A stretch of 64,000 nt of DNA from an uncultured bacterium (GCA_964423505.1 CAYREX010000003.1:76817-140816); one strand, 5' to 3'; shown: positions 7,274 to 10,935, counted from the stretch's first letter. Notes: a model not told the origin generated them from the letters alone. Translations and numbers: made by a program.

Positions 7274-7669
7274 GTGCGATTGAGCGTCGTCGGAGTCGGT
7301 CTGGACATCATCGACATCGACAGGTTCAGGGCCTCTCTGGACGACGCGCTTGCACGGGAGTTGTTCCTCCCCGGGGAGATCGAGTACTGCGAGGGCCGGG
7401 CACGGCCGTGGGAGAGCTACGCCGCGCGCTTCGCCGCCAAGGAGGCGGCGTTCAAGGCCCTGGGGCGCGGCCTCGCCCAGGGGATGACCTGGCACTCCGT
7501 GGAGGTCGTGCGAGAGGAAAGCGGAGCGGTGAGCCTGCTGCTCCGGGGTCCCGCGCTTGCGCGGGCCGGGGAGCTGGGCGTCACACGCATGCACGTAACG
7601 CTGAGCCATGACGCAACGGGAGCCGTCGCGGCGGTGATAATGGAGAGCACGGGAGGGGGACCGAGTTGA
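7274..7669 (+). CDS. acpS: Holo-[acyl-carrier-protein] synthase (4'-phosphopantetheinyl transferase)
   Basis: GVGLDIIDIDRF...FAAKEAAFKALG motifs of AcpS at about 130 aa. Stop overlaps the start of the downstream ligase gene. Confidence 0.8.
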   Translation: MRLSVVGVGLDIIDIDRFRASLDDALARELFLPGEIEYCEGRARPWESYAARFAAKEAAFKALGRGLAQGMTWHSVEVVREESGAVSLLLRGPALARAGELGVTRMHVTLSHDATGAVAAVIMESTGGGPS

Positions 7670-9411
7670 GCAACATCGGCTCGTACGAGAGCAGGAGGAA
7701 GGACTTCGACTGGAGCGTCGCCCGGGACGTCCTGGGTTGGGAGGAGGGAGAGCTCCTCAACATCGGGCACATCTGCTCGGACAGGGTGTGCGAGAGGGGC
7801 GGCGCCGACAGGAAGGCCCTGGTCTGGGAGGGCTTCGGGGACAGGAGCGCCGATTACACCTTCGACGACCTGAGGGTCCTCTCCAACGGCTTCGCCGCCT
7901 TCCTGCGGGACATCGGCATCGAGCCGGGCGACAGGGTATGCATATTCATGGACAAGATACCGGCGCTCTACTTCTCCTTCCTGGGCATACTGAAGATTGG
8001 CGGCATAGCGCAGCCGCTCTTCTCCGCCTTCGGCGACGAGTCGCTGGAGGTGCGCCTGGAGAGTGCCGGGACGAAGGCCGTGCTCACCACGAAGAAGCAC
8101 CTCAGGAAGGTTCGGAAGATAAGGGACAGGCTCCCCGCACTGGAGCACGTCATCGTGGTCGAGGGAGACCCGGAGAAGCTCCGTGACAACGAGGTCTTCT
8201 TCGACGTCGAGAGCGCGCCCAGGGTCAGGGAGCTGGACGTCTACCAGTCCGGCCCGGAGACCCCCTCGGTCCTGCACTACACCTCCGGCACCACCGGCCA
8301 GCCGAAGGGCGCACTGCACGTGCACAGCTCGGTCTGGGGCCAGGCTCTCACCACCAGCTGGGTGCTGGACCTGACCACCGACGACGTCTACTGGTGCACC
8401 GCCGACCCGGGCTGGGTGACCGGCACCAGCTACGGCATCATCGGTCCCTGGTCGCTGGGAGTCACCCAGTGCATCCTCGACTCCGGCTTCACCGCCGGCA
8501 GGTGGTACAGGTTCATGCAGGACCACGGGGTAACCGTCTGGTACTCCGCCCCCACCGCCATCAGGGCCCTGATGAAGGAGGGGGAGGAGGTCGTGTCGCA
8601 GTACGACCTGGGGAGCCTCAGGCACCTGGCCTCCGTGGGAGAGCCGCTCAACGCCGAGGCGGTGATATGGAGCGGCAAGGTCTTCAACGGCCCCTTCCAC
8701 GACACCTTCTGGCAGACCGAGACCGGCGCGATGATGATAACCAACTACCCCGGCATGGAGATCCGTCCGGGCTCCATGGGCAAGCCGTTCCCCGGCATAG
8801 AGGCGGCGGTCCTCGACCTGGACACCCACGAGCCGGTGGAGGAGCCCGGGAAGGTCGGCCTCATCGCATTCAGGCCCGGATGGCCCTCGATGTTCAGGAC
8901 CTACTGGAAGAGGCCGGACATCTACAGGAGCAAGTTCGTGGGGGCGCCGGAGGACGCCGAGCCGGACGAGCTCCGGACCAACCGGGACCTCTGGTACGTC
9001 TCCGGCGACAGGGCCAGCATCGACGCCGACGGCTACTTCTGGTTCGTGGGCCGCGACGACGACGTCATCAACACCGGCGGGCACCTGGTCGGCCCCTTCG
9101 AGATAGAGTCGGCTCTGGTGGAGCACGAGGCGGTGGCCGAGGCGGCAGCCGTGGGCAAGCCGGACGAGGTGAACATGGAGGTGGTGAAGGCCTTCGTGAC
9201 GCTGAAGCCGGGCTACGAGCCGAGCGACGACCTGGAGCTGGACATAATGAACTTCATCCGCAAGAGGCTCTCTCCGCTGGCGATGCCCCAGGAGATCGAG
9301 TACATGGAGAAGCTGCCCAAGACCAGGTCGGGCAAGATAGTGAGAAGGTACCTGAAGGCCCGGGAGTGGGGCGAGGAGGTGGGCGACCTGTCCACCCTCG
9401 CAGACGACTAG
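7666..9411 (+). CDS. AMP-forming acyl/acetyl-CoA (or acyl-ACP) synthetase, acetyl-CoA-synthetase-like
   Basis: AMP-binding motif YTSGTTGQPKG and ACS-like DVYWCTADPGWVTGTSY and WQTETG motifs. TTG start. Confidence 0.85.
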   Translation: MSNIGSYESRRKDFDWSVARDVLGWEEGELLNIGHICSDRVCERGGADRKALVWEGFGDRSADYTFDDLRVLSNGFAAFLRDIGIEPGDRVCIFMDKIPALYFSFLGILKIGGIAQPLFSAFGDESLEVRLESAGTKAVLTTKKHLRKVRKIRDRLPALEHVIVVEGDPEKLRDNEVFFDVESAPRVRELDVYQSGPETPSVLHYTSGTTGQPKGALHVHSSVWGQALTTSWVLDLTTDDVYWCTADPGWVTGTSYGIIGPWSLGVTQCILDSGFTAGRWYRFMQDHGVTVWYSAPTAIRALMKEGEEVVSQYDLGSLRHLASVGEPLNAEAVIWSGKVFNGPFHDTFWQTETGAMMITNYPGMEIRPGSMGKPFPGIEAAVLDLDTHEPVEEPGKVGLIAFRPGWPSMFRTYWKRPDIYRSKFVGAPEDAEPDELRTNRDLWYVSGDRASIDADGYFWFVGRDDDVINTGGHLVGPFEIESALVEHEAVAEAAAVGKPDEVNMEVVKAFVTLKPGYEPSDDLELDIMNFIRKRLSPLAMPQEIEYMEKLPKTRSGKIVRRYLKAREWGEEVGDLSTLADD

Positions 9412-9429
9412 GCGAAGGAGGATGAACCG

Positions 9430-9678
9430 ATGGACGACATGAAGGACGTGGTGCTCCAGTACGTGGTGGACGAGTACCTGGACGAGGAGGACGAGGAGGA
9501 GATCTCCTACGACTCCCCGCTCATCTCCTCCGGCATAGTCGACAGCTTCTCCATGGTCTCGCTGAAGAAGTTCCTGGAGAAGAGGTACGAGATATCCCTT
9601 CCGGACGACGAGGCCACGCCGGAGGCGTTCGACACCGTGGAGTCGATAGTCACCCTGGTCAAGAAGCACCGGGGTTAG
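9430..9678 (+). CDS. Acyl-carrier-protein-like small acidic protein
   Basis: 82 aa, highly acidic, with a central GIVDSFSMVSL (a Ser phosphopantetheine-site-like DSF motif). Sits between the ligase and the aminotransferase. Confidence 0.65.
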   Translation: MDDMKDVVLQYVVDEYLDEEDEEEISYDSPLISSGIVDSFSMVSLKKFLEKRYEISLPDDEATPEAFDTVESIVTLVKKHRG

Positions 9679-9687
9679 GGGGTACGC

Positions 9688-10935
9688 ATGGCTTTCACCG
9701 ACAGGACGAGGGAAGTCTTCGCCGGCGAGATAGAGGAGATAAAGGCGAAGGGCCTCTACAAGGAGAAGCGCTTCATATGTTCCCCGCAGGCGGCCGAGAT
9801 AGAGGTGGAGTACCCGGAGGGGGCCGAGCACGAGAAGGTCCTCAACTTCTGCGCCAACAACTACCTGGGCCTCTCCAGCCATCCGGACGTCATCGCCGCC
9901 GCCCACGAGGGGCTGGACGAGCGGGGCTACGGCATGAGCTCCGTCCGCTTCATCTGCGGCACCCAGGACATACACCGTGAGCTGCAGGAGAGGGTCTCCG
10001 AGTTCCTGGGCATGGAGGAGACGCTCCTCTTCCCCTCCTGCATGGACGCCAACTCCGGCGTCTTCGAGGCGGTGCTGGGCCAGGAGGACGTGATCATCGC
10101 CGACAGGCTCATCCACGCCTCGCTGGTGGACGGCATCAGGCTCTGCTCGGCGGAGTACGACACCTTCAAGCACATGAACATGGGCCACCTGGAGAGGAAG
10201 CTGGACCTCCACCAGGACAAGCGCACCAGGATGGTGGTCACCGACGGCGTCTTCTCCATGGACGGCGACCTGGCTCCCCTCGACGAGATGGTGGCTCTCT
10301 GCGACAGGTACGACGCCATGCTCCTCGTGGACGACTCCCACGCAAGCGGCTTCATAGGCAGGACCGGCCGCGGCACCCACGAGCACTTCGACGTCATTGA
10401 CGGGGTGGACATCATCACCACCACCTTCGGGAAGGGCCTCGGCGGAGCATCCGGCGGCTGCGTCTCCGGCCGCCGGGAGCTGGTGGAGCTCTGCCGGCAG
10501 AAGGCCAGGCCCTACCTGTTCTCCAACTCCCTCGCGCCGCCCATCGTGGCCGCCTCGATAAAGGTCCTCGACATCATCTCGAAGACCACCGAGCGGCGCG
10601 ACAAGCTGGAGAGGAACACCCTCCGCTTCAGGAAGGGCATGGAGGAGGCCGGGCTGAACATCCGCGAGGGGGAGACCCCCATCGTCCCGGTCATGCTCTA
10701 CAACGCCAAGCTGGCCAACAACATGGCCCGCGACATGTACGCCGAGGGCATATACGTGATAGGCTTCTTCTTCCCGGTGGTCCCGGCGGGTGCCGCCAGG
10801 ATAAGGGTGCAGCTCTCCGCCGCCCACGAGGACGAGCACATCGACCGCTGCGTCGAGGCGTTCCGCAAGGTCGGCGACAGGTACGGCATCCTCGGCCTGG
10901 GCAAGAAGGAGATCATAGAGAAGTACGGCAAGTAG
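9688..10935 (+). CDS. Alpha-oxoamine synthase, Kbl-like paralogue (glycine C-acyltransferase / serine-palmitoyltransferase family)
   Basis: [30 protein letters not shown] and PLP-lysine region TTFGKGLGGASGG. About 50% identical by eye to the second copy at 20301-21503. Confidence 0.9.
   Translation: MAFTDRTREVFAGEIEEIKAKGLYKEKRFICSPQAAEIEVEYPEGAEHEKVLNFCANNYLGLSSHPDVIAAAHEGLDERGYGMSSVRFICGTQDIHRELQERVSEFLGMEETLLFPSCMDANSGVFEAVLGQEDVIIADRLIHASLVDGIRLCSAEYDTFKHMNMGHLERKLDLHQDKRTRMVVTDGVFSMDGDLAPLDEMVALCDRYDAMLLVDDSHASGFIGRTGRGTHEHFDVIDGVDIITTTFGKGLGGASGGCVSGRRELVELCRQKARPYLFSNSLAPPIVAASIKVLDIISKTTERRDKLERNTLRFRKGMEEAGLNIREGETPIVPVMLYNAKLANNMARDMYAEGIYVIGFFFPVVPAGAARIRVQLSAAHEDEHIDRCVEAFRKVGDRYGILGLGKKEIIEKYGK

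Follow-up and report, generated by a model that had tools for sequence, protein, structure and literature searches.

A conserved ligase, carrier protein and alpha-oxoamine synthase operon of mostly uncultured bacteria as a candidate acetyl-transfer module of glycine and threonine metabolism

A 64,000-nucleotide stretch of DNA from an uncultured bacterium (GCA_964423505.1 CAYREX010000003.1:76817-140816, hereafter the window, meaning this whole stretch) raises the question of what an alpha-oxoamine synthase (AOS) does when its gene is kept together with genes for a carrier protein and for enzymes that could prime and charge it. Four plus-strand open reading frames (ORFs) fill positions 7274-10935 and encode, in this order, a phosphopantetheinyl transferase (acpS), an AMP-forming ligase, a carrier protein of 82 amino acids and the AOS. 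An initial interpretation of the locus (the sequence-only reading) had described four co-directional genes, which our ORF analysis found at exactly those positions, and had considered them a possible sphingoid-base or aminolipid pathway. Our results point instead, with a probability that we place at about 0.5, to an acetyl-transfer module that is complete in itself, has a carrier of its own and belongs to acetate, glycine and threonine metabolism, not to sphingolipid synthesis.

In the scheme proposed here, AcpS would first modify the carrier protein at Ser39 with phosphopantetheine. The ligase, which resembles acetyl-CoA synthetase (ACS), would adenylate acetate and then pass the acetyl group to the pantetheine thiol of the carrier, not to free CoA. 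The AOS, with pyridoxal 5'-phosphate (PLP) bound at Lys249, would subsequently condense the acetyl-S-carrier with glycine, yielding 2-amino-3-oxobutanoate and the holo-carrier. This product could then be reduced to threonine by L-threonine 3-dehydrogenase (TDH) or cleaved with CoA by the canonical glycine C-acetyltransferase (Kbl). Since 2-amino-3-oxobutanoate is also the intermediate of TDH and of the CoA-dependent Kbl, the module would plug acetate into the metabolism of glycine and threonine.

The closest homologues of the AOS (81-88% identity) and of the carrier protein (70-82%) came from genomes named Candidatus Fermentibacteria, Aegiribacteria and Hyd24-12, and four contigs with these names contained the same four genes in the same order within unrelated flanks. 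An exact look-up of the window AOS gave no record, and the lineage of the window was judged from these homologues. A scan of one genome per species (GTDB representatives) with an alignment of the carrier proteins of close relatives recovered at least 568 matching loci, and the best 80 of them were examined in detail. These 80 loci are labelled with more than 12 phyla, so that the operon can no longer be viewed as a peculiarity of one uncultivated lineage, as had been assumed at the outset. The labels include Fermentibacteria, Delongbacteria, Zixibacteria, Aminicenantes, Acidobacteria, Holophagae, Terriglobia, Thermoanaerobaculaceae, Ignavibacteria, many Bacteroidales, Chloroflexota, Clostridia, Planctomycetota, Krumholzibacteriia, Riflebacteria and Bipolaricaulota. 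The GC content of the loci spans 31-70%, indicating that they belong to different genomes and do not represent one contaminant, and identities to the window proteins by tblastn were 59-81% for the ligase, 60-79% for the carrier protein and 63-88% for the AOS. Besides, look-ups of the cluster members and a search seeded with a Bacteroidales AOS returned metagenome-assembled genomes only, and no cultivated organism carrying the cluster was among them.

Gene order was counted in 83 non-redundant loci, using for each junction those with enough flanking sequence. In 70 of 75 loci the ligase gene directly precedes the carrier gene, and in 77 of 78 a cluster-type AOS gene directly follows it, an arrangement far beyond chance; a homologue of acpS was found directly 5' of the ligase gene in 31 of 69. 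These counts identify ligase, carrier and AOS as the conserved core and acpS as a frequent fourth member, while clustering of all flank ORFs revealed no other universal member. The earlier proposal that the four genes form one functional unit is supported.

The AOS itself is recognised by models of the Kbl family, exceeding the cutoffs of TIGR01822 for glycine C-acetyltransferase (571.6 bits, cutoff 493) and of NF005394 (567.8 bits, cutoff 460). It failed, in contrast, the three NCBIfam models for serine palmitoyltransferase (SPT), with 325.7, 289.5 and 249.9 bits against cutoffs of 640, 500 and 670, and scored under each cutoff of the models of BioF, ALAS and CqsA type. By sequence comparison it is nonetheless not the orthologue of the characterised Kbl, as the same genome holds a closer one. 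This is the second kbl of the window, whose existence had been noted previously and is confirmed here by its high TIGR01822 score; its product is 61% identical to Kbl of E. coli, compared with 53% for the cluster AOS, and the two window proteins share 52-54% identity (52% by BLASTP). In a comparison of 100 aligned sequences, which included 67 cluster-type AOS and 28 sequences of the canonical Kbl type (among them E. coli Kbl and the second Kbl of the window), the cluster-type proteins shared 63-88% of their residues with the window AOS and 48-54% with the Kbl sequences. Moreover, the 67 members were monophyletic and stood apart from canonical Kbl in a neighbour-joining tree rooted with BioF, in agreement with the previous description of this AOS as a paralogue.

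Asn50, His136, Ser185, Asp210, His213, Thr241, Lys244, Ser274, Asn275 and Arg368 (E. coli numbering) are invariant in both the cluster type and canonical Kbl, and so is the Kbl-specific SVRFICGT block, from which the sequence-only reading had correctly picked out the FICGTQD string, present in the window AOS as RFICGTQD. The invariance of the catalytic and PLP-binding residues together with this block makes glycine the most likely amino-acid substrate. Position 135, just before the PLP-stacking His136, is however Asn in 28/28 Kbl sequences and Val or Ile in 67/67 cluster AOS. Further signatures of the cluster type are F112M (66/67), L264C (67/67) and S268A (65/67), the loss of the Lys or Arg at position 362 and the gain of a C-terminal extension. 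Such a pattern is what would be expected if the chemistry had been kept and the thioester donor changed, which the sequences therefore suggest.

The ligase contains AMP-binding and AMP-binding_C domains and passes the NF003313 model 'acetate--CoA ligase' (PRK04319 type) with 742.1 bits, as does a Bacteroidales homologue with 755.4 bits (cutoff 729 in both cases), and it is far under all cutoffs of the long-chain ligase models. Its nearest solved relative is the 572-amino-acid 'Acetyl-coenzyme A synthetase' 9g79 (E 5e-168, 49.7% identity), which we take to be B. subtilis AcsA. Residues were compared in an alignment of 58 cluster ligases with E. coli Acs and are numbered as in S. enterica Acs, which is possible because both enzymes are equal in length. 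Val310, Thr311 and Val386 of the acetate pocket are kept in 58/58 cluster ligases and Trp414, the tryptophan 'wall', in 55/58. The catalytic Lys609 is likewise kept and, taken together with the pocket, favours acetate and disfavours long-chain acids as the substrate.

Changes were found in residues connected with the second half-reaction. The roles of Arg191, Arg526 and Arg584 in the CoA-dependent, thioester-forming step of ACS have been described, and in Acs of M. thermautotrophicus the counterpart of Arg526 (Arg528) stabilises the thioester-forming conformation (PMC10455477). Replacement of this residue by alanine gave an enzyme that could not be saturated with CoA, and the R528K and R528Q variants showed a kcat reduced 130- to 326-fold (PMC10455477). 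Arg526, an arginine in both E. coli Acs and 9g79, is leucine in 58/58 cluster ligases, and Arg580 is methionine in 58/58. E188K and V516D are also fixed, at positions where E. coli Acs and 9g79 agree, and the Arg191 position is variable among the cluster ligases in a part of the alignment that is weak. Arg526Leu and the other fixed changes support, short of proof, the use of a thiol acceptor other than free CoA.

Judged by its sequence and its predicted structure, the 82-residue protein is a genuine carrier protein, as had been anticipated from its size and acidity. It scores above the cutoff of PF00550 (PP-binding; 23.8 bits, cutoff 20.8) and well below that of TIGR00517, the model of the housekeeping acyl carrier protein (ACP), with 24.9 bits against 70.45, so that it is not of the AcpP type; in addition, no fab genes were present in the flanks examined of the carrier loci. 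The phosphopantetheine motif reads GIVDSFSMVSL, with the attachment site at Asp38-Ser39, and both residues are conserved in at least 90% of a diverse alignment and invariant among close relatives. The AlphaFold model (mean predicted local distance difference test score, pLDDT, of 87.8) contains helices at residues 3-16, 39-53 and 70-81 according to DSSP, with Ser39 opening the second helix. Its best Foldseek matches were PigG, PltL, DltC and a Bradyrhizobium aminoacyl carrier protein (template modelling, TM, scores of 0.75-0.84), and a sequence search led to the same families. Stand-alone carriers of the PigG, PltL and DltC type are charged by free adenylating enzymes, which fits the presence of a ligase gene next to the carrier gene. 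The product of acpS was assigned by PF01648 (ACPS, 62 bits) and by the holo-ACP synthase model NF000832 (112.6 bits, cutoff 107). Of the two outcomes that the sequence-only reading had regarded as unfavourable to its own proposal, one was thus observed, namely an AOS that falls inside the Kbl family, and the other, an 82-residue protein without carrier character, was not borne out. An additional lead, the OlsHI system of ornithine lipids, was considered for the carrier and abandoned, given that this best NCBIfam match was sub-cutoff (65 against 130 bits) and that published work says that OlsH requires neither ACP nor CoA.

The genes that recur around the cluster fit the proposed substrates. 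Canonical Kbl is encoded within 7 kb of the cluster in 28 loci, often right after the AOS gene or right before acpS, on the same strand and often in the same operon, and TDH genes occur within 7 kb in 16 loci (13 of the short-chain dehydrogenase/reductase, SDR, type and 3 of the Zn type). In the window, both genes lie no more than 19 kb downstream of the operon, and the best solved relatives of the window TDH are the L-threonine 3-dehydrogenases 2yy7 (E 1.5e-107), 7epr, 6jyg and 4yr9. An AceTr/SatP acetate uptake transporter (NF038013, 271 bits) was found near the cluster in 9 loci, mostly directly after the AOS gene, and ActP-like symporters in 4. A protein of about 890 amino acids that combines a region of the ADP-forming acetate--CoA ligase alpha type with a C-terminal Pat-like GNAT domain is encoded near the cluster in 8 loci (L017, L028, L039, L049, L052, L063, L065 at 9209-11893, and L079), which hints at a control of the ligase by lysine acetylation. 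Altogether, Kbl, TDH, the acetate transporters and the Pat-like proteins place acetate on one side of the module and 2-amino-3-oxobutanoate, and with it glycine and threonine, on the other. Reductases, N-acyltransferases and other lipid genes were not among the recurrent neighbours. The 7-10 kb around the cluster in 84 loci likewise showed no recurrent family of ceramide reductase or ceramide synthase, and beyond the recurrent neighbours the flanks differ between loci.

Some loci depart from the common layout. In an Acidobacteria-labelled locus (L076), the ligase and carrier genes are kept without a cluster AOS gene 3' of them, and a divergent gene upstream (3844-5199, minus strand) encodes an AOS of 35% identity, an arrangement that may be a variant of the module. 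Additionally, a third and distant AOS, 27-33% identical to both the cluster AOS and Kbl, is encoded after the cluster AOS gene on the same strand in three loci labelled Ignavibacteriales and Zixibacteria (L019, 9029-10264; L031, 8573-9997; L033, 6054-7379). Another locus (L016) was discarded as a ligase-less variant, since its fragmented ORFs suggest frameshift errors.

Among characterised systems, the closest parallel in architecture is the one that the sequence-only reading had pointed out, the sphingolipid cluster of Caulobacter crescentus. The AasR-AcpR-SPT set (CC_1165, CC_1163 and CC_1162) likewise brings together an ANL-family ligase, a dedicated carrier and an AOS, and it has been demonstrated that AasR acylates AcpR only and not CoA, and that SPT prefers acyl-AcpR (PMC9386255). 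The operon described here differs from it in having a short-chain, ACS-type ligase with an acetate pocket in place of a long-chain acyl-ACP synthetase, an AOS of the Kbl family (glycine and a C2 unit) in place of SPT (serine and a C16 unit), and no ceramide genes. By analogy, it probably works like AasR-AcpR-SPT without belonging to it, because the AOS does not qualify as an SPT, nor the ligase as a long-chain enzyme.

Each component also has a counterpart in other known systems. The cluster resembles tdh-kbl of E. coli (EC 2.3.1.29) in its neighbouring TDH and Kbl genes, in an AOS that retains every catalytic residue as well as the substrate block and, presumably, in 2-amino-3-oxobutanoate as a common compound; in contrast, the cluster AOS forms a distinct clade with changes beside His136 and the PLP loop, and its pairing with a carrier and a ligase suggests acetyl-carrier instead of acetyl-CoA as the donor. 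The ligase shares the acetate pocket and Lys609 with 9g79 and with the product of acs in the E. coli acs-yjcH-actP operon, and acetate transporters and Pat-like proteins accompany it in some loci, but it is set apart by Arg526Leu and Arg580Met (58/58), E188K and V516D and by the carrier gene that follows it. Finally, PigG/PigI, PltL/PltF and DltC/DltA provide the closest relatives of the carrier in sequence and fold, and in each pair the carrier is loaded by a separate ANL-type enzyme. These carriers hold prolyl or D-alanyl groups for pyrrole or teichoic-acid pathways, whereas the present carrier has a ligase with an acetate pocket as its partner and an AOS as the next enzyme.

Several observations weigh against a carrier-dependent acetyl-transfer module and keep our estimate near one half. 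Both the ligase and the AOS exceed the NCBIfam cutoffs for ordinary CoA-dependent enzymes, so that either of them may use CoA. Arg584, the residue that in true ACS touches the 3'-phosphate of CoA, is present in 58/58 cluster ligases, indicating a CoA site that has been remodelled and not erased, and the number of genuine ACS behind the comparison at Arg526 is small (E. coli Acs, S. enterica Acs, 9g79 and 8rpk). The nearest structural relatives of the carrier mostly hold aminoacyl groups, not acetyl. The adjacency of acpS is limited to 31/69 loci, and the taxon labels stem from metagenome-assembled genomes, some of which may be wrongly named. It is also a puzzle that a carrier-dependent and a CoA-dependent Kbl working together would amount to a seemingly pointless shuttle of acetyl groups from carrier to CoA. 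That the ligase loads the carrier and that the AOS accepts the acetyl-carrier are both inferred from synteny and residue patterns, and the choice of glycine, the physiological direction and the purpose of the module are deduced in a similar manner.

The direction is precisely where the first alternative departs from our proposal. Kbl (EC 2.3.1.29) catalyses a reversible reaction that in the cell usually proceeds as cleavage, so that the same proteins could convert threonine to glycine and acetate with recovery of ATP. In this case, threonine would be oxidised to 2-amino-3-oxobutanoate and cleaved to glycine and acetyl-carrier, the ligase would run backwards (acetyl-carrier + AMP + pyrophosphate giving acetate + ATP), and acetate would be exported through an adjacent channel. 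Most of the host lineages are anaerobic fermenters, genes for TDH and acetate channels occur repeatedly beside the cluster, and an AMP-forming ACS reportedly operates in reverse in Syntrophus aciditrophicus. The sequences give no direction, however, and the operon resembles the acetate-scavenging acs-actP of E. coli, with Pat-like regulators adjacent in 8 loci. Besides, the carrier seems needless for such a route, as canonical Kbl already provides acetyl-CoA for ATP formation. We consider energy conservation by reversal unlikely on balance.

A specialised product is the second alternative and, in our assessment, an equally unlikely one. The module would then form a small aminoketone, either aminoacetone, by decarboxylative condensation, or the product of an amino acid other than glycine, as a precursor of pyrazine-type molecules or signals. 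Most AOS enzymes decarboxylate, dedicated carriers are typical of specialised metabolism, and the fixed changes next to the active site of the AOS clade would agree with a new product. Analogies exist with the autoinducer synthases CqsA and LqsA and with the Tdh-derived 3,5-dimethylpyrazin-2-ol (DPO). 2-Amino-3-oxobutanoate spontaneously decarboxylates to aminoacetone, a precursor of DPO (PMC12930378). On the other hand, the core proteins are about 60-88% identical to those of the window across the labelled phyla, the GC content at third codon positions (GC3) of the core genes (0.94) suggests high expression, the recurrent flank genes include none for tailoring enzymes, receptors or exporters, and the glycine/Kbl substrate block is invariant.

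The third alternative, to which we give slightly less credence, takes the annotations at face value. The ligase would be the ACS of the cell, the AOS a second CoA-dependent Kbl, and the carrier and AcpS unrelated or accessory proteins. Public annotations use only such housekeeping names, and both enzymes score above the curated cutoffs for acetate--CoA ligase and glycine C-acetyltransferase, with Arg584 and Lys609 retained in the ligase. This view does not explain why the carrier gene stands between the two enzymes (70/75 and 77/78 loci) across more than 12 phylum labels in otherwise unrelated flanks, with a carrier that is 60-79% identical across loci and not of the AcpP type. Furthermore, the AOS forms a separate clade beside canonical Kbl, often encoded in the same operon, and Arg526 is leucine in every cluster ligase; without this arginine in the ligase, and with an AOS that is a paralogue of Kbl, the cluster is more than a combination of ordinary ACS and Kbl. 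Condensation of serine or glycine with a long-chain acyl group bound to a dedicated ACP, as in a sphingoid-base or aminolipid pathway, is highly improbable. The gene layout does match AasR-AcpR-SPT (PMC9386255), and the top NCBIfam model of the carrier is an ornithine-lipid ACP, albeit sub-cutoff (65 against 130 bits). Against this, the acetate pocket of the ligase is closed as in ACS, with Trp414 in place, and the ligase lies far below the long-chain cutoffs; the AOS passes the Kbl models and none of the three for SPT; and the recurrent neighbours are acetate transporters, TDH and Kbl and not lipid genes.

Carrier proteins usually serve the assembly of lipids, polyketides and peptides, while the acetyl units of central metabolism travel on CoA. 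If the acetyl-transfer module proposed here is correct, the charging of a private carrier by an acetate-specific ligase, on behalf of a Kbl-type enzyme, would put the ligase-ACP-AOS design to a new use, and no ACP-dependent Kbl or ligase-carrier-AOS operon of this kind was found described in the literature searched. It would also reveal an unrecognised route between acetate, glycine and threonine that is masked by the labels 'acetate--CoA ligase', 'acyl carrier protein' and 'glycine C-acetyltransferase'. Automatic annotations would be corrected in hundreds of genomes, among them at least 568 species-level representatives in which these genes now appear as plain ACS and Kbl, and metabolic models of abundant but uncultivated fermenters (Fermentibacteria, Aminicenantes, Zixibacteria, Delongbacteria and many Bacteroidales) would gain an extra node. 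We tentatively suggest, at somewhat less than even odds, that many uncultivated anaerobic lineages possess a CoA-independent, carrier-based acetyl shuttle in their central amino-acid metabolism, which might serve to assimilate acetate into C4 compounds or to conserve ATP from threonine.

Table 1. Genes of the operon and functionally associated genes of the window (positions counted from the first nucleotide of the window).
Feature	Position	Strand	Remarks
acpS, holo-(acyl carrier protein) synthase (4'-phosphopantetheinyl transferase)	7274..7669	+	131 aa, GTG start
ACS-type AMP-forming ligase, proposed acetate:[carrier protein] ligase	7666..9411	+	581 aa, TTG start
Dedicated acidic carrier protein	9430..9678	+	82 aa, pI 4.1, phosphopantetheine site Ser39
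Kbl-paralogue AOS, proposed carrier-protein-dependent glycine C-acetyltransferase	9688..10935	+	415 aa
Canonical kbl (glycine C-acetyltransferase), functionally associated, outside the operon	20301..21503	+	TIGR01822 603.7 bits
SDR-type L-threonine 3-dehydrogenase (TDH), functionally associated, outside the operon	28860..29816	+	solved relatives are TDH

The genes of the operon (Table 1) are tightly spaced. The stop codon of acpS and the TTG start of the ligase gene overlap by 4 nt (TTGA), and this is the sole overlapping junction of the operon; the overlapping stops and starts described earlier therefore hold for this pair and not for the other two, which are separated by gaps of 18 nt (ligase to carrier) and 9 nt (carrier to AOS). 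Both gaps contain a purine-rich ribosome-binding site, which in the 18-nt gap is AAGGAGG. A scan for consensus promoters around the operon found none, and two overlapping weak terminator-like matches were located about 110 nt 3' of the AOS gene, in a scanned region where the total of such matches was close to the shuffled expectation. The GC3 of the ligase, carrier and AOS genes is among the highest of the window. An open frame of 1220 amino acids at 7417-11079 on the minus strand, antisense to these three genes, is most likely a shadow ORF and not a gene, considering how high the GC3 of the three genes is (0.94).

Other features of the window were recorded as well. A low-GC island at 30298-43000 (43-49% GC compared with about 68% elsewhere) opens with a tyrosine integrase (30298-31797, minus strand) and also encodes a SIR2_2-domain protein, an HNH endonuclease, a HAD hydrolase, an HTH/DUF3024 protein and a weak nucleoside 2-deoxyribosyltransferase-like protein; by its appearance, it is a mobile or defence island that has become integrated. 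A thiamine pyrophosphate (TPP) riboswitch (RF00059, 60.2 bits, gathering score 54.3) is located at 25326-25417 on the minus strand, just 5' of a minus-strand ORF at 24039-25337. The regions flanking the operon encode signalling proteins, namely a GGDEF/AAA_16/TPR protein of 1230 amino acids (16490-20182) and a putative protein of 560 amino acids of the TPR and HD-GYP type, judged from its translation alone (2385-4067); HD-domain response regulators also recur in some of the Fermentibacteria loci.

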